Shown piece by piece: positions 3,616 to 54,385 of a stretch of DNA of 64,000 nt (the first letter of the stretch is position 1; the number at the start of each line of letters is the position of its first letter). The notes under the pieces were generated by a model. That model saw only the letters and a list, made by a program, of their open reading frames with translations. It was not told the DNA's origin and searched no databases. This DNA is from Escherichia coli (lineage in GTDB: Bacteria; Pseudomonadota; Gammaproteobacteria; Enterobacterales; Enterobacteriaceae). Position numbers and translations under genes: made by a program. The stretch lies in NCBI RefSeq assembly GCF_030013205.1, contig NZ_CP122648.1. The stretch is one strand, 5' to 3'.

Positions 3616-3907
3616 GTATACTTATATCACGGGTTTTTCCATTCCGTATCCAGGAGGAATTCAGGTGAGCAATCGCAGAAGTCAGGCAAGTCGTGATGAG
3701 TTCGCTCTTGATAGCCGTGTTGCACGAATGGAGTCTGATATCTCATACATCAAGAGAGATATTGAAGAGCTGAAGAGCGATCTCAAGGATGTGAGAGGCG
3801 ATATTGATAAGATACGCACAACAGATTTCAGGCTCATGTTTGGTGCGTTGATTACTACAGCCTTGGGGTTAGCTGGCTTAATGGCGAGAGGTTTTCACTG
3901 GATTTAA
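3605..3907 (+). CDS. Hypothetical small membrane protein: coiled coil plus C-terminal transmembrane anchor
   Basis: 99-100-aa ORF (GTG 3605 or ATG 3608) overlapping upstream stop (ATGAATGA); AGGAAGG RBS; hydrophobic C-terminus FGALITTALGLAGLMARGF. Confidence 0.55.
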   Translation: MMNEYTYITGFSIPYPGGIQVSNRRSQASRDEFALDSRVARMESDISYIKRDIEELKSDLKDVRGDIDKIRTTDFRLMFGALITTALGLAGLMARGFHWI

Positions 3908-4015
3908 GATCCACAAAGTGACCACATCTCTGTTATTTGTTGTGGTTGGCTGTGTTTTTGTGTGTCTGTAAGTCTTTGATAATTATCTAACTTATTGATT
4001 TTTGTTTGTGTTTAT

Positions 4016-4040
4016 GGCCGCTCTGCGGCCTTTTTTCTTT
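4016..4040 (+). terminator. Rho-independent terminator-like hairpin upstream of btuC
   Basis: GGCCGC-TCTG-CGGCC stem-loop followed by TTTTTTCTTTT. Confidence 0.45.
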
Positions 4041-4098
4041 TCACTGTCGAAGAGTCACCGTAAAATCAACGCCATGACACTTCAGCAGAACGGATACC

Positions 4099-5079
4099 AT
4101 GCTGACACTTGCCCGCCAACAACAGCGACAAAATATTCGCTGGTTATTATGCCTGTCAGTTTTGATGCTGCTGGCGCTTCTCTTAAGCCTTTGCGCCGGT
4201 GAACAATGGATCTCGCCAGGTGACTGGTTTTCTCCTCGAGGCGAACTGTTCGTCTGGCAGATTCGCCTGCCACGTACGCTGGCTGTATTGCTGGTTGGTG
4301 CGGCGTTGGCTATATCCGGCGCTGTAATGCAGGCGTTATTTGAAAATCCTCTGGCAGAACCTGGACTACTTGGCGTCTCTAATGGCGCAGGCGTGGGGCT
4401 TATCGCCGCGGTATTGCTTGGGCAAGGGCAACTCCCCAACTGGGCGCTGGGGCTGTGTGCGATTGCTGGCGCGCTTATCATCACTTTAATACTCTTACGT
4501 TTCGCCCGTCGTCATCTTTCGACCAGTCGGTTATTGCTGGCTGGCGTTGCATTAGGGATTATCTGTAGCGCACTAATGACGTGGGCTATCTACTTTTCCA
4601 CCTCTGTTGATTTACGTCAGCTGATGTACTGGATGATGGGCGGTTTTGGCGGCGTAGACTGGCGGCAAAGCTGGCTGATGCTGGCATTGATCCCCGTGTT
4701 GTTGTGGATCTGTTGTCAGTCCAGACCGATGAATATGTTAGCACTTGGCGAGATCTCGGCGCGGCAACTGGGTTTACCCCTGTGGTTCTGGCGCAATGTG
4801 CTGGTGGCAGCGACCGGCTGGATGGTTGGCGTCAGTGTGGCGTTGGCGGGTGCTATCGGCTTTATTGGTCTGGTGATCCCACATATTCTCCGGTTATGTG
4901 GTTTGACCGATCATCGCGTATTACTTCCCGGCTGCGCGCTGGCAGGGGCGAGCGCATTGCTGCTGGCCGATGTTGTAGCGCGCCTGGCATTAGCTGCTGC
5001 AGAGCTGCCTATTGGCGTGGTCACCGCAACGTTGGGTGCGCCGGTGTTTATCTGGTTATTGTTAAAAGCAGGACGTTAG
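4099..5079 (+). CDS. btuC: Vitamin B12 ABC transporter permease
   Basis: 326-aa ORF matching K-12 BtuC; btuCED order. Confidence 0.95.
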
Positions 5080-5141
5080 CCGCAAAAAGACGGTCTATGA
5101 TTAAAAGCTAAGATTTTTACTGACCACACCCAGGAGAAACG

Positions 5142-5693
5142 ATGCAAGATTCCATTCTGACGACCGTAGTGAAAGATATCGACGGTGAAGTGACCACGCT
5201 GGAGAAGTACGCCGGTAATGTGCTGTTGATTGTCAATGTCGCCTCAAAGTGTGGCTTAACGCCGCAATATGAGCAGTTGGAGAATATTCAGAAAGCCTGG
5301 GCCGATCGTGGTTTTGTGGTGCTGGGATTCCCGTGCAACCAGTTTCTGGAGCAAGAACCGGGCAGCGATGAAGAGATTAAAACTTACTGCACCACTACAT
5401 GGGGGGTGACGTTCCCGATGTTCAGTAAGATTGAAGTTAATGGTGAAGGACGCCATCCGCTGTATCAAAAATTGATTGCCGCAGCGCCGACCGCAGTCGC
5501 GCCGGAAGAGAGCGGATTCTATGCCCGTATGGTCAGCAAAGGTCGTGCACCGCTGTACCCTGATGATATCTTATGGAATTTTGAGAAATTTTTAGTTGGC
5601 AGGGACGGATTGGTCATCCAGCGTTTTTCCCCGGATATGACGCCGGAAGATCCCATTGTGATGGAAAGCATTAAACTGGCGTTGGCAAAATAA
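5142..5693 (+). CDS. btuE: Thioredoxin/glutathione peroxidase
   Basis: 183-aa ORF, glutathione peroxidase family, between btuC and btuD. Confidence 0.95.
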
Positions 5694-6442
5694 TGTCTAT
5701 TGTGATGCAGTTACAGGATGTTGCGGAGTCTACCCGCCTGGGGCCGCTTTCTGGCGAGGTTCGGGCTGGGGAGATCCTGCACCTGGTGGGGCCGAATGGC
5801 GCGGGTAAGAGTACCTTACTGGCGCGAATGGCCGGAATGACCAGCGGTAAGGGAAGCATTCAGTTCGCGGGGCAACCACTGGAAGCATGGTCCGCAACAA
5901 AACTCGCGCTGCATCGCGCCTATCTTTCACAACAACAGACGCCACCGTTTGCAATGCCGGTCTGGCACTACCTGACACTGCATCAGCACGATAAAACGCG
6001 TACCGAACTACTGAATGATGTCGCAGGGGCGCTGGCTCTTGATGACAAACTCGGACGTAGCACCAAGCAACTTTCCGGCGGCGAATGGCAACGCGTACGT
6101 CTTGCTGCGGTGGTGCTGCAAATCACACCACAAGCCAATCCCGCAGGCCAATTGCTGCTTCTTGATGAGCCGATGAACAGTCTTGATGTTGCGCAACAAA
6201 GTGCATTAGACAAAATTCTGAGCGCGCTGTGTCAGCAAGGACTGGCGATTGTGATGAGCAGTCACGATCTCAACCATACATTGCGTCATGCGCATCGGGC
6301 GTGGTTGCTAAAAGGTGGAAAAATGCTGGCCAGTGGACGCAGGGAAGAGGTGCTCACGCCGCCAAATCTGGCGCAGGCCTATGGGATGAATTTTCGCCGT
6401 CTGGATATCGAAGGTCACAGAATGCTGATTTCGACCATCTGA
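5693..6442 (+). CDS. btuD: Vitamin B12 ABC transporter ATP-binding protein
   Basis: 249-aa ORF with Walker [10 protein letters not shown]; start overlaps btuE stop. Confidence 0.95.
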
Positions 6443-6519
6443 TTTCATTAGTATCTTGAAAATCGGGTAATTACGACGCTAAATTAATGCAAGAATAAAA
6501 AACAGAGGAACCGTACGGA

Positions 6520-6984
6520 ATGCGTTTCTGCCTTATTTTGATCACAGCACTGTTTCTGGCCGGGTGTAGCCACCATAAAGCACCGCCGCCAAATGCCAGA
6601 CTTTCTGATTCGATTACCGTTATTGCCGGTTTGAACGACCAGCTACAGAGCTGGCATGGCACGCCGTATCGTTATGGTGGCATGACGCGGCGCGGTGTGG
6701 ACTGTTCGGGGTTTGTGGTTGTGACGATGCGCGATCGTTTCGATTTGCAGCTGCCCCGAGAAACTAAAGAACAAGCCTCTATCGGCACGCAAATTGATAA
6801 AGACGAGTTGCTGCCAGGTGACCTGGTCTTTTTCAAAACGGGCTCCGGACAAAATGGTTTGCATGTAGGTATTTACGATACCAACAACCAATTTATCCAC
6901 GCCTCTACCAGCAAGGGAGTGATGCGTTCCTCACTTGATAATGTCTATTGGCAGAAAAATTTCTGGCAGGCGAGACGAATCTAG
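6520..6984 (+). CDS. nlpC: NlpC/P60 family lipoprotein (putative peptidoglycan endopeptidase)
   Basis: 154-aa ORF, lipobox LAGC, NlpC/P60 Cys motif. Confidence 0.9.
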   Translation: MRFCLILITALFLAGCSHHKAPPPNARLSDSITVIAGLNDQLQSWHGTPYRYGGMTRRGVDCSGFVVVTMRDRFDLQLPRETKEQASIGTQIDKDELLPGDLVFFKTGSGQNGLHVGIYDTNNQFIHASTSKGVMRSSLDNVYWQKNFWQARRI

Positions 6985-7230
6985 TATGTCGAAAAATTGA
7001 CGGCGATGATACATCGCCGTCAATTTACTCCAGAATACGGTAGTATTTTGCAGACAAAAATTCCGTAAATGGATTATTCGTTTATAATCAGGATAATCTA
7101 AAAAAAGGACCCCTGAAAAAGTGGTTAACATGGAACAAATGAAAGTTACTCCTTCTGTAATTGTTATGTCTTATGGCCTCATCCCTTTTAGCCGGATACT
7201 GAAAAACATCCTTCGAGAGGGACGGTTACC

Positions 7231-7944
7231 ATGAAGATTTTTTTGGAGAATCTTTATCATTCTGATTGCTATTTCCTGCCGATAAGAGATAACCAGCAAG
7301 ACCTTGTCGGCGTTGAGTTAATTACCCATTTCTCCAGTGAAGATGGTACGGTTCGTATCCCGACGAGTCGGGTTATAGCGCAACTTACCGAGGAGCAACA
7401 TTGGCAATTATTTTCAGAGCAGTTGGAATTACTAAAATCATGCCAACACTTTTTTATTCAACATAAACTCTTTGCCTGGCTTAATTTAACGCCACAAGTG
7501 GCTACTTTATTATTAGACAGGGATAATTACGCAGGCGAACTATTAAAATATCCGTTTATTGAACTGTTGATTAATGAGAATTACCCGCATCTCGATGAAG
7601 GAAAAGATAATCGCGATCTTTTTTCCTTATCGCAAATGTATCCCCTTGTGTTAGGTAATTTGGGCGCAGGCAATAGCACAATGAAAGCGGTTTTTGATGG
7701 TCTTTTCACCCGCGTCATGCTGGATAAAAGTTTTATTCAGCAACAAATCACGCATCGCTCCTTCGAACCGTTTATTCGTGCGATCCAGGCGCAAATTTCC
7801 CCATGTTGCAATTGCATCATCGCGGGGGGCATTGATACGCCAGAAATAATGGCACAGATTACCCCCTTTGATTTCCATGCTCTCCAGGGATGCCTGTGGC
7901 CTGCCGTTCCCATAAATCAGATAACGACGTTGGTTCAGCGATAA
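7231..7944 (+). CDS. ydiV: Anti-FlhD4C2 factor, degenerate EAL-like protein
   Basis: 237-aa ORF matching K-12 YdiV; synteny. Confidence 0.9.
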   Translation: MKIFLENLYHSDCYFLPIRDNQQDLVGVELITHFSSEDGTVRIPTSRVIAQLTEEQHWQLFSEQLELLKSCQHFFIQHKLFAWLNLTPQVATLLLDRDNYAGELLKYPFIELLINENYPHLDEGKDNRDLFSLSQMYPLVLGNLGAGNSTMKAVFDGLFTRVMLDKSFIQQQITHRSFEPFIRAIQAQISPCCNCIIAGGIDTPEIMAQITPFDFHALQGCLWPAVPINQITTLVQR

Positions 7945-7967
7945 CCCTCCTGTTTGCTGGTGTTTAA

Positions 7968-9443
<1,476 letters not shown>

Positions 9444-9446
9444 AGG

Positions 9447-9638
9447 CTACTTGGTCAACAGCAGCTTGCCAGCCTGAGTTTTACGGAGCAGATATTCTTG
9501 CCCGTCATGATCGATAATCAGTTTGCCATCCGGACCTAACAGTGTCTGGCTGGTAATTCGCCGAATGGGCTGTGGGGAAGCGGTCTTGTGATTGGCATCC
9601 GTTTCAGGCGTGAGTTTTCTGCTATCCGTATAACGCAT
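9447..9638 (-). CDS. ydiE: HemP-like small protein
   Basis: 63-aa protein from internal ATG of 72-aa ORF (MRYTDSRK...), matches K-12 YdiE. Confidence 0.8.
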
Positions 9639-9769
9639 AAAGATTAATAATAATTGATATAACAATGATTCTTATTATCAATATTATGGCGGGCCAGAGC
9701 AAGCAGTAATTTGTTGAGAAGACAACAAGTTGCGCAGAAATGCCCATTCCGTCAGGAATGGGCACGCAT

Positions 9770-10816
9770 TCAGAAACGGGTATCAACTGCAGAGGCGAGT
9801 TTTTCGACCAGGCGTTCGGTATCTTCCCAGCCCAGACACGGGTCGGTAATCGATTGACCGTAAGTGAGCGGCTGACCGCCGGCGATTTTTTGCGTTCCTT
9901 CGCGCAGGAAACTTTCCGCCATAATTCCAGCAATCGCCGTAGAGCCATTGCGGATTTGCTGACAAATATCCTCACAAACTTCTAACTGGCGACGGTGCTG
10001 CTTCTGGCAGTTACCGTGGCTGAAATCCACCACCAGATGTTCAGGTAAATCAAACTCGTGCAGCGTATCGCAGGCTGCGGCGATATCATCGGCATGATAA
10101 TTCGGTTTTTTGCCGCCACGCATAATAATGTGGCCATACGGGTTGCCGCTGGTCTGATAGATGGTCATCTGACCATTTTTGTCTGGCGAGAGGAACATAT
10201 GGCTGGCGCGGGCTGCGCGGATAGCATCCACGGCAATCCGCGTGTTGCCATCGGTACCATTTTTAAAACCTACCGGACAGGAGAGTGCCGAAGCCATTTC
10301 ACGGTGGATCTGACTTTCGGTAGTACGTGCGCCAATCGCACCCCAACTGATTAAATCAGCAATAAACTGACCGGTCACCATATCGAGGAACTCAGTCGCG
10401 GTAGGGACGCCCAGCTCATTTACCTGTAAAAGTAATTTGCGCGCCAGCTCCAGACCGTGATTTACCCGATAGCTGCCGTTTAAATCTGGATCGGAGATTA
10501 GCCCTTTCCAGCCGACAACAGTTCGTGGTTTTTCAAAATAGGTGCGCATTACGATTTCCAGCCGTGACTGGTACTGGTTGCGCAGCGACTGCAGACGGGT
10601 GGCGTACTCCATTGCAGCGGTGAGATCGTGGATCGAGCAGGGGCCAATAATGACCAACAGTCGCTTATCTTCACCATTCAGTATTTTTTCAATTCTGCGG
10701 CGGGAGTCGGTGACATGGGTGGCGACGCCAGGCGTTACGGGATACCGTAGCGCGAGTTCGGCGGGCGTTACCAGGCTCTCAATACGCGCAGTACGGAGTT
10801 CGTCAGTTCTGTTCAT
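9770..10816 (-). CDS. aroH: DAHP synthase, Trp-sensitive
   Basis: 348-aa ORF matching K-12 AroH. Confidence 0.95.
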   Translation of the reverse strand: MNRTDELRTARIESLVTPAELALRYPVTPGVATHVTDSRRRIEKILNGEDKRLLVIIGPCSIHDLTAAMEYATRLQSLRNQYQSRLEIVMRTYFEKPRTVVGWKGLISDPDLNGSYRVNHGLELARKLLLQVNELGVPTATEFLDMVTGQFIADLISWGAIGARTTESQIHREMASALSCPVGFKNGTDGNTRIAVDAIRAARASHMFLSPDKNGQMTIYQTSGNPYGHIIMRGGKKPNYHADDIAAACDTLHEFDLPEHLVVDFSHGNCQKQHRRQLEVCEDICQQIRNGSTAIAGIMAESFLREGTQKIAGGQPLTYGQSITDPCLGWEDTERLVEKLASAVDTRF

Positions 10817-17911: not shown

Positions 17912-18850
17912 TTAGCTGCTCAACTGGCTAATCAGGGCAGGGACGACTTTGTAGATATCGCCCACCAGACCGTAGTCGGCATAGTTGAAGATTGGCGCAT
18001 TTTTATCTTTATTGATGGCGACAATCACTTTTGCGCCGTTGCCGCCAACCATATGCTGGATCTGCCCGGAAATCCCCAGCGTCAGGTAGAGATCGGATTT
18101 CAGCAACACGCCGGAGACACCGATATAACGTTCACGCTCCATCCAGTTCTCGCCTTCGGCAATTGGACGTGAACAGCCGACTTCAGCATTCAGCACCGCC
18201 GCCAGTTCGTGGACCATTTTCAGGTCATCCTGCGCCGCCAGACCACGACCGACGCCAACCACACGTTTTGCTTTGCTCAGGTCCACGCTGCTTGCGGCTT
18301 TCGCACGGCGTTCGCGACAGAGAATTTCATGACGCGGAGCAACATAAGGTACCGTTTCTGTCGGGCACTGATGAGCGGTATCACTGGTGCACGGTTCCTG
18401 AACACCGGGTGCAAGGGTAATGATCGCCAGCGGGCTGTTGATCTTTTCCTGTGCGAACGCTAACCCGCCATACATCCGGTGTTCGGCGCAAATGTGACCA
18501 TCGACAATATCCACCGCAGTGGCATCGTTCACCAGCGCCGCATTCAGTTGCACACTTAACCGTGCTGCCAGAGCTTTACCACGTTTCGTCGCGGCCAGCA
18601 GCAACATAGAAGGGTGTTTATCTTTCAGCAGGGCAGCAATGCTTTCGGCGTAATTTTCAGTACGTTGCAGCGCATCATTTTGCTCAAGAACATAAATACA
18701 TTTTGGACCATAAGGCATAACTGCCTGCGCCTGGTCGGTATTTTGTACAATGGCATACACCTGTTGGCCCCATTGCTGCGCGCCGCCAAACAGTTCAGCA
18801 TAACGTTCAGGATTATCGCTAAAGACCCAGACGCTGTTTAATTGACTCAT
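17912..18850 (-). CDS. ydiR: Electron transfer flavoprotein alpha subunit (FixB-like)
   Basis: 312-aa ORF matching K-12 YdiR. Confidence 0.92.
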   Translation of the reverse strand: MSQLNSVWVFSDNPERYAELFGGAQQWGQQVYAIVQNTDQAQAVMPYGPKCIYVLEQNDALQRTENYAESIAALLKDKHPSMLLLAATKRGKALAARLSVQLNAALVNDATAVDIVDGHICAEHRMYGGLAFAQEKINSPLAIITLAPGVQEPCTSDTAHQCPTETVPYVAPRHEILCRERRAKAASSVDLSKAKRVVGVGRGLAAQDDLKMVHELAAVLNAEVGCSRPIAEGENWMERERYIGVSGVLLKSDLYLTLGISGQIQHMVGGNGAKVIVAINKDKNAPIFNYADYGLVGDIYKVVPALISQLSS

Positions 18851-18869
18851 CGTTTCTTCTCCGTAGGCT

Positions 18870-19634
18870 TCAGTTCAGGGCTTTCTTCAGATGTTCCGCC
18901 AGCTCGGCAATGGCCTCCGGCGAATCGTTATCGAGAATGATGTGCTTACGTTCTGTTTGCGGCGGTACGCGAATGCCGGTCAGTTCAGCAAGCGGCGCGC
19001 TCTGGCTCCAGCCAATGTCACTTGCCTGCCACTGATTTACCGGTTTTTTACCCGCGCCGAGAATGGCTTTCATCGAAGGAATGCGTGGCATGTTAATATC
19101 GGAGGTGACGCAGAGCACGGCTGGAACAGAGAGCTCAATAACTTCAACATCATCTTCAAGCGTGCGTTCAATCACCAGTGTATTGCCCTGACGCTGAATA
19201 GCACTCACTGCATTAATCACCGGAAGTTGCAGAATTTCTCCGACCAGCAAGCCAACCTGCTGGGCATAAAGGTCGCCGGAACCTTCACCAAAGATCAGTA
19301 AATCGAAGCCGATTTTTTCAACTGCTGCCGCCAGCGCCTTTGCGGTATCGAGAGGCAGTGCATGTTCAAGTTGCGCATCCTGCACCAAATACAGGCTATG
19401 CGGCCCGCGGGATAGCACGTCTTTACGCACTTTCGAGTTCTGCAACAATGAGCCGCCAATGGTCAGCGCGGCTATCTCATCGTCATCTGTTGCAATCTGG
19501 CTTGCAGCTTCAATGGCATTGAGATCGAACTGGCTGATTTTGGCGTCGGCATTGTCGAAATTCAGGGTATATTCTGGAGTGACAACAATGTCCTGTTCTT
19601 CAGGCACCAGCTTAAAGCAGGTTATTATTTTCAT
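18870..19634 (-). CDS. ydiQ: Electron transfer flavoprotein beta subunit (FixA-like)
   Basis: 254-aa protein from internal ATG (MKIITCF) of 287-aa ORF. Confidence 0.9.
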   Translation of the reverse strand: MKIITCFKLVPEEQDIVVTPEYTLNFDNADAKISQFDLNAIEAASQIATDDDEIAALTIGGSLLQNSKVRKDVLSRGPHSLYLVQDAQLEHALPLDTAKALAAAVEKIGFDLLIFGEGSGDLYAQQVGLLVGEILQLPVINAVSAIQRQGNTLVIERTLEDDVEVIELSVPAVLCVTSDINMPRIPSMKAILGAGKKPVNQWQASDIGWSQSAPLAELTGIRVPPQTERKHIILDNDSPEAIAELAEHLKKALN

Positions 19635-44776: not shown

Positions 44777-47526
<2,750 letters not shown>

Positions 47527-47529
47527 GGA

Positions 47530-48177
47530 ATGGGTGAGATGAACCATCAGGATGAATTGCCGTTAGCGAAAGTCAGCGAAGTTGATGAGGCGAAGCGGCA
47601 ATGGTTGCAGGGGATGCGTCACCCCGTTGATACGGTAACCGAACCAGAACCTGCTGAAATCCTGGCAGAGTTCATTCGTCAGCATTCTGCGGCTGGGCAG
47701 CTGGTGGCGCGCGCCGTGTTTCTCTCGCCACCCTATTCGGTTGCAGAAGAGGAACTGTCAGTTTTGCTGGAAAGCATTAAGCAGAACGGAGACCACGCGG
47801 ATATCGCTTGTTTGACGGGAAGCCAGGATGATTACTATTACTCAACTCAGGCCATGAGTGAAAACTACGCGGCGATGTCTTTGCAAGTTGTGGAGCAGGA
47901 CATTTGTCGCGCCATTGCACACGCCGTTCGTTTTGAGTGCCAGACGTATCCTCGTCCTTACAAAGTCGCCATGCTGATGCAAGCGCCATATTACTTCCAG
48001 GAAGCGCAGATCGAATCCGCGATCGCCGCGATGGATATTGCACCTGAATATGCTGATATACGGCAGGTGGAGTCATCGACGGCGGTGTTGTACTTGTTTA
48101 GCGAGCGATTTATGACCTATGGCAAGGCGTATGGCTTATGCGAATGGTTCGAGGTAGAGCAGTTTCAGAACCCCTGA
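47530..48177 (+). CDS. ydhW: Uncharacterised protein YdhW
   Basis: 215-aa ORF matching K-12 YdhW. Confidence 0.88.
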   Translation: MGEMNHQDELPLAKVSEVDEAKRQWLQGMRHPVDTVTEPEPAEILAEFIRQHSAAGQLVARAVFLSPPYSVAEEELSVLLESIKQNGDHADIACLTGSQDDYYYSTQAMSENYAAMSLQVVEQDICRAIAHAVRFECQTYPRPYKVAMLMQAPYYFQEAQIESAIAAMDIAPEYADIRQVESSTAVLYLFSERFMTYGKAYGLCEWFEVEQFQNP

Positions 48178-48240
48178 AATTTCAGGGAGATGTCATGGAT
48201 AGGGTGGACAGTTGCAGCCACTGCATTAGGGGATAATCAG

Positions 48241-48909
48241 ATGTCCTTCACTCGACGCAAATTTGTTCTGGGGATGGGAACAGTAATCTTTTTTACTGGT
48301 TCTGCGTCTTCTCTGTTAGCGAACACGAGGCAAGAAAAGGAAGTTCGGTATGCCATGATTCATGACGAGTCACGGTGCAATGGCTGTAATATTTGCGCCC
48401 GCGCATGCCGTAAAACTAACCACGTCCCCGCTCAGGGAAGCCGTTTATCGATAGCACACATTCCAGTCACCGATAACGACAACGAAACGCAGTATCACTA
48501 TTTTCGCCAGTCATGCCAGCACTGTGAAGATGCTCCTTGCATCGATGTTTGCCCGACAGGGGCGTCGTGGCGTGATGAGCAGGGGATCGTGCGGGTAGAA
48601 AAATCGCAGTGCATCGGCTGCAGTTATTGCATTGGCGCTTGCCCGTACCAGGTTCGCTACCTTAACCCTGTCACTAAAGTGGCAGATAAATGTGATTTCT
48701 GCGCTGAGTCCCGACTGGCAAAAGGCTTTCCGCCCATTTGCGTCAGCGCCTGCCCGGAACACGCCTTGATCTTTGGTCGCGAAGATAGCCCAGAAATTCA
48801 GGCGTGGTTGCAGGAAAATAAATACTATCAATATCAGCTACCTGGTGCCGGGAAACCGCATCTGTATCGCCGATTCGGTCAACATTTGATTAAAAAGGAA
48901 AATGTATGA
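48241..48909 (+). CDS. ydhX: Tat-signal ferredoxin-like 4Fe-4S protein
   Basis: 222-aa protein from ATG at 48241 (MSFTRRKFVLG twin-arginine signal); four Cys clusters. Confidence 0.9.
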   Translation: MSFTRRKFVLGMGTVIFFTGSASSLLANTRQEKEVRYAMIHDESRCNGCNICARACRKTNHVPAQGSRLSIAHIPVTDNDNETQYHYFRQSCQHCEDAPCIDVCPTGASWRDEQGIVRVEKSQCIGCSYCIGACPYQVRYLNPVTKVADKCDFCAESRLAKGFPPICVSACPEHALIFGREDSPEIQAWLQENKYYQYQLPGAGKPHLYRRFGQHLIKKENV

Positions 48910-49691
48910 ACCCGTCGCAACATGCTGAACAGTTTCAGAGCCTGTTGGCGAACTATGTGCCACAGTTCACTCCCGAATTTTGGCCGGTGTGGTTGATCAT
49001 TGCCGGACTATTGCTGGTTGGGATGTGCTTGGTGCTGGGGCTGCATGCCTTGCTTCGTGCTCGTGGCGTGAAGAAATCAGCCACCGATCATGGTGAGAAG
49101 ATTTATCTTTACAGCAAAGCGGTCAGATTATGGCACTGGTCGAATGCGTTACTCTTTGTATTGTTGCTGGCAAGTGGGCTGATAAATCACTTTGCGCTGG
49201 TGGGCGCAACTGCGGTTAAAAGTCTGGTTGCGGTGCATGAAGTTTGCGGATTTTTGTTACTGGCATGCTGGCTTGGCTTTGTTCTGATCAATGCCGTTGG
49301 GGGTAATGGTCACCACTATCGCATTCGTCGTCAGGGTTGGCTGGAGCGAGCGGCAAAACAAACGCGATTTTATTTGTTTGGTATTATGCAGGGGGAAGAA
49401 CATCCTTTCCCGGCAACAACACAGTCTAAATTTAATCCCTTACAGCAGGTCGCCTATGTTGGTGTCATGTATGGATTGCTGCCGTTGTTACTATTGACGG
49501 GGCTGCTGTGTCTCTATCCGCAAGCCGTGGGAGATGTGTTTCCTGGCGTAAGATACTGGTTATTGCAGGCGCATTTTGCTCTGGCATTTATAAGCCTCTT
49601 TTTTATCTTCGGTCATCTTTATCTTTGCACCACGGGGCGTACGCCACACGAAACCTTTAAAAGCATGGTCGATGGCTATCACCGGCACTAA
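48906..49691 (+). CDS. ydhU: Membrane cytochrome b-type subunit (PhsC-like)
   Basis: 261-aa polytopic ORF; 4-nt overlap with ydhX. Confidence 0.9.
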   Translation: MNPSQHAEQFQSLLANYVPQFTPEFWPVWLIIAGLLLVGMCLVLGLHALLRARGVKKSATDHGEKIYLYSKAVRLWHWSNALLFVLLLASGLINHFALVGATAVKSLVAVHEVCGFLLLACWLGFVLINAVGGNGHHYRIRRQGWLERAAKQTRFYLFGIMQGEEHPFPATTQSKFNPLQQVAYVGVMYGLLPLLLLTGLLCLYPQAVGDVFPGVRYWLLQAHFALAFISLFFIFGHLYLCTTGRTPHETFKSMVDGYHRH

Positions 49692-49694
49692 CGA

Positions 49695-50507
49695 ATGATC
49701 ATTACACGAGCAGACCTGCGAGAATGGCGTATCGGAGCGGTGATGTATCGCTGGTTCCTGCGCCATTTCCCACGCGGCGGTAGTTATGCCGATATTCATC
49801 ATGCACTGATTGAGGAAGGATATACGGACTGGGCGGAGAGTCTGGTTGAGTATGCGTGGAAAAAATGGCTGGCGGATGAAAACTTCGCGCATCAGGAAGT
49901 TTCCTCTATGCAAAAATTGGCCACAGATCCCGGAGAGAGAGCATTTTGTAGTCAGTTTGCCCGCAGCGACGATCATGCTCGCATCGGCTGTTGTGACGAT
50001 AACGCCAGAATCGCAACCGCTGGGTATGCTGCACAAATTGCCAGTATGGGTTATAGCGTGCGGATTGGAAGTGTCGGCTTTAACAGTCACATTGGCAGCT
50101 CCGGTGAGCGTGCACGGGTTGCTGTAACCGGCAATTCTTCGCGGATAAGCAGCGCTGGAGATAGTAGTCGGATTGCGAATACCGGAATGCGAGTACGCGT
50201 TTGTACATTGGGTGAACGGTGTCATGTCGCCAGTAATGGTGACCTGGTGCAAATCGCCAGCTTTGGCGCAAACGCCAGAATTGCCAACAGCGGCGACAAT
50301 GTATACATCATTGCCAGCGGTGAAGATTCAACAGTAGTGAGCACGGGCGTGGTCGACTCAATTATTCTCGGGCCAGGGGGAAGCGCCGCACTGGCATATC
50401 ATGACGGCGAAAGAGTTCGCTTCGCCGTCGCCATTGAAGGTGAAAACAATATTCGAGCCGGAGTCCGCTATCGCCTTAATGAACAGCATCAGTTTGTTGA
50501 GTGCTGA
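49695..50507 (+). CDS. ydhT: Uncharacterised protein YdhT with tandem nonapeptide repeats
   Basis: 270-aa ORF; residues ~93-227 show 9-residue periodicity (xxxR[IV]xxxG). Confidence 0.9.
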   Translation: MIITRADLREWRIGAVMYRWFLRHFPRGGSYADIHHALIEEGYTDWAESLVEYAWKKWLADENFAHQEVSSMQKLATDPGERAFCSQFARSDDHARIGCCDDNARIATAGYAAQIASMGYSVRIGSVGFNSHIGSSGERARVAVTGNSSRISSAGDSSRIANTGMRVRVCTLGERCHVASNGDLVQIASFGANARIANSGDNVYIIASGEDSTVVSTGVVDSIILGPGGSAALAYHDGERVRFAVAIEGENNIRAGVRYRLNEQHQFVEC

Positions 50508-50512
50508 TAGCT

Positions 50513-52123
50513 TTACATTTGATTAAACGAAAGACGCTGACGAGCACGGGATGCAGGCTTTACGACCGCCTGAGCCATCGCCTCACCAATTTCTGCACAT
50601 GCCGTAAGTCCCTGTACGAATGGCTGGTCGTGCATCAACCAGGGCAACGCGCCGAACGCTACGCGCCCACGAATTTCTTCGGGTTGCTGTAGCGTATAAT
50701 CTTCGCCAACATCAGGGATTTCATCCCCTGTTTTCTGTAATTGTTCGCGTAGTCCAGGGAAAGGAATATCTTTCACTTTAAGCGGACGCTGCCCGCGGGC
50801 ATCAATAAAAACGTCAAACGAGTAGCTGTTGTCTTCCGTTTTCAGGACGGTGCGCGACTCATTAATTTCCATTTCGTAGTCTTCACCGAGGGCGAGAATA
50901 TGAATGATTCCCGCTTCACGTAAGGCCAGCAGCCGACGAATAGACTCTGAAGGGATTGCCGCATAATTATCGATGAAAACCCGGGCAAGGCTTTTACTGA
51001 ACCGTTTATGGTCGAGTTCATTCAGATGAGGAACAATTTCCTGTACGGCTTCATGCAGGCGCAGAATGACATAACGCCAGGGAACAGTATGTTTTTCTCG
51101 TTTATTGCGTTCGACTTCCTGGAGATTTTTTTCTGCCCAGTCGAACGGGTCGCGTTGTTTGCGCTCGGCAAACCAGGCTTGAGCAAAGGAATCGACATTC
51201 AGGCTTTCTAAGGCTATGCGTTGGCTCCAGTCTGGATCAGCAAATTTGATTTCCTCTACTATCAATCTAAATACCCGATCCAAAAGGCCCTCTTCGCCTT
51301 TTTGAATCTCAGCATTTAATGCTTGATCAGTGACGATGTGTAAGGGCTCGTAGGGAATAGGGCAATAGAAATCGGCTTCGGGTAGAATACCTGTGCGCGA
51401 CATTAACGTAATATTTAGCTTTTCACTTGCGTTATCGCGGTGAAAAATGACGTGTTGTTTATCATCTTCAATGAACGAACCATGCTGAATAGCCACTGCC
51501 ATTGCCGCATCTAGTCCGCTCAAGGATGTTCCCATAATACCCACGTTACACGCATCGACCTTTGCTTCCATCAGGCCTGACCACGGGCTGGGAAAATACG
51601 TTCTGGTTGCTTCTTCTTCATCAGGCCAGACGTGACCCGTCGCGATCACTGCTAAATCAAACGTCTCGCTGGGTAAATCCTGATTTGTAGCGAGCATGAC
51701 GCCAGCATTTATAATTTGCAGATCGGTAACCTGGCATGATTCATAAACAGCCACTGCAAATTTTTGCTGTCGTGCCTGGTCTACTAATCGTAAAAATTGA
51801 TCGCGGAAATATTCGCCCAGCAGAATTCGCGGTAAAAACTGACGATCGTGCAAGGTTTCTTTTTTAACGCCATAACGCTGGAGATGGCTGGCTTCTTGCT
51901 TTTGTAGCCATTCGAGATACGTACAATAAATCGGCGGTATTTCAATACTGGCAATATTTGCCAGCATCATTTTTGAGTTTTCCTCATCACTGTATGGCAT
52001 CCCGACACCGGCTTCATCAGCCTGCTCGAAGATAGAAATAGAAAGTGGAGTTTGTTGCTGTAGAAGCGAGAATAAGGTGTAGATCCCCGTAGGCCCGGCA
52101 CCCACAATAGCAATTTTTTTCAT
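50513..52123 (-). CDS. ydhS: FAD/NAD(P)-binding protein of unknown function
   Basis: 536-aa ORF with N-terminal GAGPTG dinucleotide-binding motif. Confidence 0.9.
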   Translation of the reverse strand: MKKIAIVGAGPTGIYTLFSLLQQQTPLSISIFEQADEAGVGMPYSDEENSKMMLANIASIEIPPIYCTYLEWLQKQEASHLQRYGVKKETLHDRQFLPRILLGEYFRDQFLRLVDQARQQKFAVAVYESCQVTDLQIINAGVMLATNQDLPSETFDLAVIATGHVWPDEEEATRTYFPSPWSGLMEAKVDACNVGIMGTSLSGLDAAMAVAIQHGSFIEDDKQHVIFHRDNASEKLNITLMSRTGILPEADFYCPIPYEPLHIVTDQALNAEIQKGEEGLLDRVFRLIVEEIKFADPDWSQRIALESLNVDSFAQAWFAERKQRDPFDWAEKNLQEVERNKREKHTVPWRYVILRLHEAVQEIVPHLNELDHKRFSKSLARVFIDNYAAIPSESIRRLLALREAGIIHILALGEDYEMEINESRTVLKTEDNSYSFDVFIDARGQRPLKVKDIPFPGLREQLQKTGDEIPDVGEDYTLQQPEEIRGRVAFGALPWLMHDQPFVQGLTACAEIGEAMAQAVVKPASRARQRLSFNQM

Positions 52124-52662: not shown

Positions 52663-52739
52663 TGGTGCGTCCGAGTGGACTCGAACCACCGACCCCCACC
52701 ATGTCAAGGTGGTGCTCTAACCAACTGAGCTACGGACGC
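52663..52739 (-). tRNA. valW: tRNA-Val (anticodon GAC)
   Basis: Reverse complement reads GCGTCCGTAGCTCAGTTGGTTAGAGCACCACCTTGACATGGTGGGGGTCGGTGGTTCGAGTCCACTCGGACGCACCA; valV/valW label by synteny. Confidence 0.93.
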
Positions 52740-52743
52740 AGGA

Positions 52744-52820
52744 TGGTGCGTTCAATTGGACTCGAACCAACGACCCCCACCATGTCAAGGTGGTGCTCTA
52801 ACCAACTGAGCTATGAACGC
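52744..52820 (-). tRNA. valV: tRNA-Val (anticodon GAC)
   Basis: Reverse complement reads GCGTTCATAGCTCAGTTGGTTAGAGCACCACCTTGACATGGTGGGGGTCGTTGGTTCGAGTCCAATTGAACGCACCA; 4-nt spacer to neighbour. Confidence 0.93.
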
Positions 52821-53128
52821 AACGTTGTAGGTGACAACGGGGACGAATATTAGCGGCAGAGTGGGAAGGTGGCAAGAGGCAAAACGTAATTTTCTGCGCT
52901 ATTTCGACCGTTTGCAGAGCTTTTAAGCAAATTGGCTATATTTTGTTGATTTGCAAGGGCGATTTTTATTCAGGATCGCATTTACATCTGACACAACCCA
53001 ATAATCTGTGTATCAGAGTTTAAACAGAGTTGTTTGCCACCATCTCAAAATCTGTCGTGGATAAATCCTCCGTAGCCTTTACACTTAGGTAGCAATAAAG
53101 GCACACAGATGCAGCAAAGGAATAAATC

Positions 53129-54385
53129 ATGGGATCTGATGCGAAAAACTTGATGAGCGACGGGAACGTGCAAATTGTTAAGACCGGCGAGGTCATTGGC
53201 GCGACGCAACTTACTGAAGGTGAGTTAATTGTTGAAGCTGGCGCAAGAGCCGAAAATACCGTGGTCACGGGGGCTGGCTGGTTGAAAGTGGCAACCGGTG
53301 GGATCGCCAAATGTACACAGTACGGCAACAATGGCACGCTATCGGTCAGTGACGGTGCCATTGCCACAGATATTGTTCAGTCAGAGGGAGGCGCAATTAG
53401 TCTCTCTACGCTCGCTACGGTTAATGGCCGCCATCCCGAAGGTGAATTTAGCGTTGATCAGGGTTATGCCTGCGGTTTGTTGCTGGAAAATGGCGGTAAC
53501 CTGCGTGTACTGGAAGGCCATCGCGCGGAAAAAATCATTCTCGATCAAGAGGGCGGCCTGTTGGTCAATGGGACAACCTCAGCGGTCGTGGTAGATGAAG
53601 GTGGTGAATTGTTGGTGTATCCAGGTGGGGAAGCCAGCAATTGTGAGATTAATCAGGGCGGCGTTTTTATGCTGGCCGGGAAAGCCAGTGATACGTTGCT
53701 TGCTGGTGGTACCATGAATAATCTCGGTGGTGAAGACTCTGACACTATTGTTGAGAATGGAGCCATTTATCGTCTGGGGACGGATGGCCTTCAGCTCTAT
53801 AGTTCCGGTAAGACGCAAAACCTGTCCGTTAATGTGGGTGGTCGGGCTGAAGTGCATGCCGGTACGCTGGAAAACGCGGTAATACAAGGTGGGACAGTGA
53901 TCTTGTTGTCACCCACCAGCGCGGACGAAAATTTTGTCGTAGAGGAAGATCGCGCACCGGTTGAACTGACCGGGAGTGTTGCATTACTGGACGGCGCTTC
54001 AATGATTATTGGCTATGGCGCAGATCTGCAACAATCAACGATTACTGTACAGCAGGGCGGTGTGTTGATTCTCGACGGCAGTACGGTAAAAGGTGACAGT
54101 GTCACTTTCAGTGTTGGTAACATCAATCTGAATGGCGGAAAACTGTGGCTGATCACTGATGCGGCAACGCAGGTGCATCTGAAAGTGAAACGCCTGCGTG
54201 GAGAGGGAGCGATTTGCCTGCAAACCAGTGCGAAAGAAATTTCACCTGACTTCATCAATGTGAAAGGGGAAGTTACTGGTGATATACACGTTGAGATAAC
54301 AGATGCCAGTCGGCAAACTCTGTGTAACGCACTGAAACTACAGCCAGACGAAGACGGGATTGGCGCAACGCTCCAGCCTGCGTAA
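53129..54385 (+). CDS. ydhQ: Autotransporter passenger-like beta-helical repeat protein (no signal peptide or barrel evident)
   Basis: 418-aa ORF rich in Gly-containing beta-helix-type repeats. Confidence 0.9.
   Translation: MGSDAKNLMSDGNVQIVKTGEVIGATQLTEGELIVEAGARAENTVVTGAGWLKVATGGIAKCTQYGNNGTLSVSDGAIATDIVQSEGGAISLSTLATVNGRHPEGEFSVDQGYACGLLLENGGNLRVLEGHRAEKIILDQEGGLLVNGTTSAVVVDEGGELLVYPGGEASNCEINQGGVFMLAGKASDTLLAGGTMNNLGGEDSDTIVENGAIYRLGTDGLQLYSSGKTQNLSVNVGGRAEVHAGTLENAVIQGGTVILLSPTSADENFVVEEDRAPVELTGSVALLDGASMIIGYGADLQQSTITVQQGGVLILDGSTVKGDSVTFSVGNINLNGGKLWLITDAATQVHLKVKRLRGEGAICLQTSAKEISPDFINVKGEVTGDIHVEITDASRQTLCNALKLQPDEDGIGATLQPA

Follow-up and report, generated by a model that had tools for sequence, protein, structure and literature searches.

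The gene ydhT of Escherichia coli lies at the 3' end of the ydhYVWXUT gene cluster, within a window of 64,000 nucleotides from contig NZ_CP122648.1 (assembly GCF_030013205.1); the window is the whole stretch of DNA that was analysed here. Its product combines a small helical domain with a long tract of nonapeptide repeats and a C-terminal cap (Table 1). The reading frame is 100% identical to genes annotated as ydhT, and the protein matches the NCBIfam equivalog NF007410 with 487.1 bits (cut-off 300), residues 2-270 aligning to profile positions 1-269. A match spanning at least 80% of ydhT was present in 5412 of the 5426 complete E. coli genomes. One of the 5421 matches in this collection is plasmid-borne rather than chromosomal, and a few genomes carry two copies.

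Table 1. Features of ydhT and of the surrounding genes, in window coordinates (ORF, open reading frame; pLDDT, predicted local distance difference test)
Feature	Position	Strand	Basis or remark
ydhT coding sequence, 270 codons plus stop	49695..50507	+	ORF call, NCBIfam NF007410, E. coli genome annotation
N-terminal five-helix domain (PF27195, YdhT_N), residues 1-76	49695..49922	+	
Flexible linker, residues 77-83	49923..49943	+	pLDDT < 50 at residues 78-82
Repeat tract, residues 84-227, 16 units, predicted beta-solenoid	49944..50375	+	15 units from 49971 in the first-pass annotation
C-terminal beta cap, residues 228-270	50376..50504	+	predicted strands, orthologue conservation
ydhY, ferredoxin-like, first operon gene	44777..45403	+	NCBIfam NF007382, 436 bits
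ydhV, aldehyde:ferredoxin oxidoreductase-family pyranopterin subunit	45424..47526	+	AFOR_N and AFOR_C
ydhW	47530..48177	+	NCBIfam NF007411, 393 bits
ydhX, NrfC-like 4Fe-4S ferredoxin	48190..48909	+	top NCBIfam matches: NrfC, DsrO and TtrB-type Fe-S subunits
ydhU, PhsC-like b-type cytochrome membrane subunit	48906..49691	+	NCBIfam NF011582, 456 bits
ydhS, convergent FAD-NAD(P)-binding protein	50513..52123	-	NCBIfam NF007381, 1108 bits

Periodicity and predicted architecture of YdhT

The repeat tract of YdhT is strictly periodic. A first-pass annotation, made from the DNA letters and their open reading frames, had described about 15 tandem nonapeptides between residues ~93 and ~227, and window positions 49971-50375 indeed correspond exactly to codons 93-227 and to 15 in-frame units, among which all of its example strings (DHARIGCCD, DNARIATAG, YAAQIASMG and others) are found. 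We measured the BLOSUM62 autocorrelation of residues 93-227 against 1000 composition-preserving shuffles and obtained z = 11.3 at lag 9, 9.8 at lag 18, 10.0 at lag 27 and 9.8 at lag 36, with z ≤ 1.1 at every other lag from 1 to 39. Because only these four lags exceed z = 1.1, the periodicity is not an artefact of composition, a possibility that the annotation itself had raised. One additional, degenerate unit (FCSQFARSD, residues 84-92) precedes the 15 and is likewise modelled as a strand.

Across all 16 units, position 4 is Arg, Gln or His in 13, position 5 is Ile or Val in 15 and position 9 is Gly in 13. The resulting consensus, [D/E/N]-x-[A/S/V]-[R/Q/H]-[I/V]-[A/G]-[S/T]-x-G, agrees with the earlier description of a basic or polar residue followed by Ile or Val, with Gly near the repeat end. 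The motif [ILV]xxxG occurs 13 times between positions 106 and 214 at a spacing of exactly 9 residues, and the final unit (219-227) terminates in GP. At the nucleotide level, the degenerate 27-bp periodicity that had been expected persists as a weak excess of positional identity only (0.43 at lag 27 versus 0.28 in codon-shuffled controls, z 6.9; 0.46 at lag 54), and Tandem Repeats Finder detected no 27-bp array in ydhT.

An AlphaFold2 model built from an alignment of 14 orthologue sequences was confident (pLDDT 91.7, predicted template modelling score 0.87) and supports the regular, solenoid-like fold that the repeats had suggested at first sight. It places five helices in residues 5-76, disorder at 78-82, one 4-residue strand per 9 residues from 87 to 216 and longer strands from 220 to 269, those of the cap at 230-236, 241-247, 258-261 and 267-269. 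Foldseek matched this model to independent AFDB models of orthologues, with a template modelling (TM) score of 0.93 to that from Citrobacter. The predicted protein thus shows the short tandem repeats, stacked strands and common axis that define the beta-solenoid class, and we consider a beta-solenoid architecture very probable. To judge by the residue pattern, R-I-A-S at positions 4-7 of each unit would form one short strand, Ile or Val at position 5 could pack a thin core to which positions 3 and 7 add small residues, Gly at position 9 may form the arc, and Arg, Gln or His at position 4 may stack as ladders on the outer faces.

In structural comparisons, the model aligned with thin beta-solenoids (Table 2), at 7-18% identity and without sequence similarity. 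Almost all of the tract can be superposed on solenoids of 18-19 residues per coil, which argues for two nonapeptides per coil; modelled in this way, YdhT would probably form about 8 coils and a rod of about 35-40 Å. Repeat lengths are about 19 residues in region IV of the Marinomonas primoryensis antifreeze protein (MpAFP), about 20-23 in curli CsgA and about 14-15 in the ryegrass protein. All three are extracellular and either calcium-dependent or amyloid-forming, which YdhT is probably not.

Table 2. Structural comparison of the YdhT model with known solenoids
Structure	Entry	Score	Length	Distance
MpAFP region IV	3p4g	15.3	171	3.6 Å
Curli CsgA	8c50	14.0	175	9.0 Å
Curli CsgA	8enq	12.9	93	8.1 Å
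Ryegrass ice-binding protein	3ult	12.2	112	8.3 Å
RTX block	7usl	11.9	110	5.4 Å
RTX block	7rah	10.6	141	2.5 Å

The sequence of YdhT contains no hydrophobic segment, at the N-terminus or elsewhere (maximum Kyte-Doolittle value, KD(19), 1.23), and neither a conserved Cys pattern nor Cys/His clusters were found in YdhT and its orthologues. Given these absences and that of any RTX, hexapeptide or collagen motif, YdhT is most likely a soluble, cytoplasmic protein without cofactor, and its solenoid is probably not calcium-dependent, since the Gly-rich, Asp-containing RTX motif is missing. The N-terminal domain very likely belongs to PF27195 (YdhT_N): this annotation is precomputed for all orthologues and for protein cluster P0001, which is 98% identical to this YdhT and from which we transferred it in place of a direct score. 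A Pfam-A scan of YdhT itself returned noise only (DUF6876 at E 0.04; EF-Tu domain 2), a Pfam search with 31 cap sequences found no match, and a sequence search of the PDB gave a single spurious lipase match (E 0.2).

The three parts of the protein are conserved to different degrees. Identity between orthologues and E. coli YdhT is highest in the cap (60-98%), followed by the N-terminal domain (43-83%) and the repeats (34-86%), and it is 0% in the linker of 11 of 13 orthologues (≤ 29% in the rest). The identity of the repeats indicates that they are individually constrained and not just generically repetitive. The cap, with the YdhT consensus GGxAALAYHDGERxRFAVAxEGENxIRAGVxYRLN, is also conserved across the wider phage family described below. 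Repeat number, which the first-pass annotation had proposed to compare across orthologues, is about 15 units in Citrobacter (269-270 residues) and 18-19 in the three longer orthologues that we counted (P0037, P0040 from Edwardsiella, and P0041); other orthologues, including that of Leminorella, have 317-333 residues, and their repeat region is longer by about 50 alignment columns. No length variant in multiples of 9 residues was evident among the clusters of E. coli proteins. In one 123-residue variant, P0058, the N-terminal domain (to about residue 68) runs straight into the last part of the tract (from about 217), so that nearly all repeats are lacking; either an in-frame deletion of natural origin or a fault of assembly could explain it.

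A modular family abundant in phages

The solenoid and cap belong to a family that extends far beyond E. coli. When a profile was searched against 1.84 billion representative proteins, it recovered 1178 clusters, defined at 50% identity, with E ≤ 1e-3, of which 494 reached E ≤ 1e-10. The majority match the repeats and cap only and differ in their N-termini. Among 40 diverse members, Pfam identified DUF7666 in 17, PcfJ in 1-4 and Macro in 1-2; the head of P0067 is a DarG-like macro domain and that of P0082 an 'A1S_2505 phage non-structural protein'. YdhT_N, DUF7666, DarG-like macro, PcfJ and A1S_2505 thus occur as interchangeable heads of one module. Two giant relatives, P0185 (3263 residues) and P0194 (1655 residues), contain no further recognisable domain. 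Most relatives have 8-23 units, and the largest count is 54.

Many of these relatives are encoded by phages. YdhT itself matches the PHROGs family phrog_4433 (E 2e-6) and, weakly, phrog_18079 (E 0.004), while its relatives match phrog_4433, phrog_18079 and phrog_27197 strongly. The protein gp55 of Edwardsiella phage GF-2, named 'putative collagen-like protein', is a full-length homologue including the YdhT_N head and is 33% identical to E. coli YdhT; its gene directly follows an N-like antiterminator in an early leftward operon. Further full-length homologues are encoded after the antirepressor of Komagataeibacter phage phiKX1 and on a metagenomic phage-like contig. Scanning IMG/VR with gp55 as the only query yielded 224 relatives, and about 25 of the best 80 carry the YdhT_N head. 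Recurrent neighbours of the phage homologues encode single-stranded DNA-binding protein (SSB), an Erf-like annealing protein, RecE-like and SbcC-like nucleases and repressors. The phage copies are early accessory genes that encode no structural proteins and have no obligate partner. The solenoid with its cap very probably constitutes a phage-related modular family. No paper on PF27195, DUF7666 or the PHROG numbers was found in the literature search.

By sequence, the proteins of PHROGs 4433, 18079 and 27197 and the DUF7666 proteins have the nonapeptide tract and the C-terminal cap in common with YdhT. They differ from it in their variable heads, in their location in phage early regions instead of a respiratory operon, and in their DNA: the 27-bp repeats of the phage copies are 89-96% identical, apparently homogenised recently, and vary in number (15-21 copies). 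In comparison, ydhT of E. coli looks like an old, frozen copy.

Two further observations concern related genes in other settings. Two full-length ydhT-like genes lie about 9 kb apart on the 66.6-kb viral contig IMGVR_UViG_2870083564_000001, an arrangement that recalls the numbered name 'ydhT_1' in Serratia symbiotica; in an evolution experiment with that bacterium, the 1413-nucleotide 'ydhT_1' suffered a 54-bp deletion, the length of two units (PMC12505973). In addition, an unannotated 23-kb GenBank record named 'Escherichia phage 503046' (CP025887.1) contains ydhT at 18751-19560 with 97.8% identity, and probably represents a transducing fragment or a piece of chromosome that was deposited under a phage name.

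The ydh operon and its variants

In the E. coli window, ydhT lies together with ydhY, V, W, X and U in the same orientation, and its start codon follows the ydhU stop by 3 nucleotides. A search of the plus strand from ydhY to ydhT found no sigma-70-like site, which weakly supports a single operon of six genes. The 700-residue product of ydhV is 100% identical to cluster P0195, to which Pfam assigns the AFOR_N and AFOR_C domains. This is the sole E. coli operon for a pyranopterin enzyme of the AOR family (Class V WOR), an enzyme whose physiological role is itself unknown, and the study cited here mentions YdhWXUT only as 'other genes' of the operon (PMC13328260). Downstream, the stop codons of ydhT and the convergent ydhS are 5 bp apart (window 50505-50515), so that the two transcripts must overlap, and the pair is listed among the E. 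coli 'excludons' (PMC12288877).

The position of ydhT is conserved in distant relatives. In four further lineages of enterobacterial type (Edwardsiella tarda, Leminorella and two metagenomic ones), ydhT closes the series ydhY-V-W-X-(U)-T and either abuts or overlaps the gene before it; YdhT of these lineages is 33-48% identical to the E. coli protein, and the genes flanking the operon differ in each case. In Edwardsiella tarda (CP100802.1, locus 3690-8954) the operon adjoins the nap operon and reads ydhY-V-W-X-T; YdhT has been kept there although the membrane anchor YdhU is lost. In one metagenomic lineage, an AbiEi/AbiEii abortive-infection toxin-antitoxin pair lies directly 3' of ydhYVWXUT (8273-10037). 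Three other ydhYVWXU loci, one each from Telmatospirillum, a member of the Rhodospirillaceae and an unassigned contig, encode YdhV proteins that are 79%, 71% and 68% identical, and belong to operons without ydhT. The Ydh enzyme thus does not need YdhT, which is an accessory supplement to a core of five genes rather than a constant subunit.

Some neighbouring features and namesakes are unrelated to YdhT. Two tandem tRNA-Val(GAC) genes occupy window positions 52663-52820 on the minus strand, and this pair accounts for a spurious open reading frame called opposite to it at 52665-52853. At 53129-54385 (+), 2.6 kb downstream of ydhT, ydhQ (NCBIfam NF007409) encodes a second solenoid-type protein, with Ag43/AIDA-like autotransporter beta-helix repeats. 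Literature matches for 'ydhT' are mostly unrelated strings or the Bacillus subtilis gene of this name, which encodes a mannanase, and the synthetic-lethal 'ydhT' of one study (PMC5120140) is a misprint for yhdT.

Possible roles of YdhT

We lean, on balance, towards the view that YdhT is a non-catalytic, phage-derived rod or scaffold that has been retained as an accessory factor of the Ydh oxidoreductase. A portable module of solenoid and cap, abundant in phage early regions with interchangeable heads, could have been captured in an enterobacterial ancestor at the 3' end of ydhYVWXU, as an old phage-type copy whose sequence has since diverged. This direction of transfer is suggested by the far greater diversity of the family in phages and by gp55, whose identity to E. 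coli YdhT (33%) matches that of the most distant orthologue linked to the operon. The protein may then serve in the assembly or tethering of a YdhV-YdhY/X-YdhU oxidoreductase, with head and cap as putative binding surfaces, and it is probably not a core redox subunit. The narrower claim that YdhT functions as an accessory factor of the Ydh complex is put forward tentatively. TorD, DmsD and NapD are small, soluble, cofactor-less proteins encoded together with a Tat-dependent molybdoenzyme, and could offer an analogy of role only: they are all-helical or ferredoxin-like, none is a solenoid, and they have no sequence or fold similarity to YdhT.

Several observations weigh against this interpretation. 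The other four AlphaFold2 models were weaker (pLDDT 74.7-82.2), and repeat proteins are prone to over-confident modelling. Profile searches of the PDB with the N-terminal domain and with the cap found no relative, and together with those of Pfam they provided no functional analogy for either part. No conserved partner gene was found beside 80 viral homologues, the commonest neighbour occurring at no more than 10 of the 80 loci. At the three operons that lack it, ydhT was absent within 7 kb, and tblastn retrieved nothing at E ≤ 1; such operons fit an accessory role and an unrelated hitch-hiker equally well.

The hitch-hiker, the main alternative, would be a phage-derived 'moron' at the operon end, with a role in phage exclusion, anti-defence or conflict that has nothing to do with the Ydh enzyme. 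The bulk of the family in phage early regions, the anti-defence-like nature of some heads (the DarG-type macro domain), the operons outside Enterobacterales without ydhT and the AbiE genes adjoining one metagenomic orthologue would all suit this explanation. We nevertheless regard it as unlikely, because the synteny is tight and repeated: in five lineages, ydhT has kept its position and its close coupling to the gene before it, despite identities of only 33-48% and different chromosomal flanks. Moreover, no phage genes surround ydhT within the window, the DNA of its repeats is old and has diverged, the number of units does not vary within Escherichia or within Citrobacter, and PADLOC returned no match for YdhT, the macro head of P0067 alone matching DarG. 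A related idea, for which we see only a small chance, joins phage and host functions: solenoid and cap could be a portable 'handle' by which phages deliver or anchor diverse early effector heads (DarG-like macro, DUF7666, PcfJ-like, A1S_2505 and YdhT_N) to a conserved host structure. YdhT of Enterobacterales would then reveal how the host uses this handle or what it targets, namely a respiratory complex in the membrane, of the YdhU/PhsC cytochrome-b type.

Other readings start from the fold or from the operon. Polymerisation of the solenoid, end to end or side by side as in bactofilins or curli, into a cytoplasmic filament that clusters the Ydh complex is improbable: the non-repeat C-terminal cap and the globular N-terminal head would block head-to-tail stacking, Pfam finds neither Curlin_rpt nor Bactofilin, and YdhT lacks the hydrophobic N-terminal segment, and thus the Sec signal peptide, that curli require. 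The UniProt name 'oxidoreductase subunit' implies a true redox or cofactor-binding subunit, which operon membership would favour and which relatives of the same name, given from context only, seem to echo. We judge this highly improbable, as the protein and its orthologues lack conserved Cys/His clusters, which speaks against an Fe-S subunit, as well as nucleotide- or metal-binding Pfam matches, as otherwise complete operons do without ydhT, and as the same module occurs in phages with no redox genes nearby. Least credible of all, and practically dismissed here, is the annotation of some homologues as RTX-type calcium-binding beta-rolls or as ice-binding, ice-nucleation or collagen-like surfaces. 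YdhT contains neither GGxGxDxUx nor even GxxGxD, and no run of at least four G-X-Y triplets (lag 3, z = -0.5); HemolysinCabind gives no significant Pfam match, and Collagen matches in homologues are marginal, with no member at E ≤ 0.001. Compared with the RTX beta-rolls of CyaA and HlyA, its hydrophobic residue stands in another register relative to Gly, and the protein is cytoplasmic, without a type-1 secretion signal and without the Gly-rich, Asp-containing calcium-binding turn. Ice-nucleation proteins of the InaZ type have a periodicity of 8, 16 or 48 residues, whereas YdhT shows no signal at lag 8 (z = -2.2) or lag 16 (z = -0.6). The hexapeptide of left-handed beta-helices, [LIV]-[GAED]-X4, is equally missing as a motif run (lag 6, z = -0.05).

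YdhT is among the remaining E. coli y-genes without a described fold or function. A solenoid as such is an ordinary structure, but the link to phages and the narrowed role of YdhT are useful and testable. A predicted cofactor-less rod with two putative terminal binding domains directs future work towards assembly, tethering and localisation rather than catalysis, and the comparable operons without ydhT point in the same direction. Beyond E. coli, the family of repeats and cap comprises more than 1000 clusters at 50% identity, matched no family in the Pfam-A set that we searched and has no relative in the PDB. Some of its members are early proteins of phages in fusion with enzymes of anti-defence type. 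The family would merit its own domain definition, as well as study of its structure and function. In the literature that we searched, a nonapeptide beta-solenoid free of calcium motifs and bearing a conserved cap has not been described, and assignment to this family corrects the names 'collagen-like', 'ice nucleation protein' and 'hemolysin' under which its members are found in databases.
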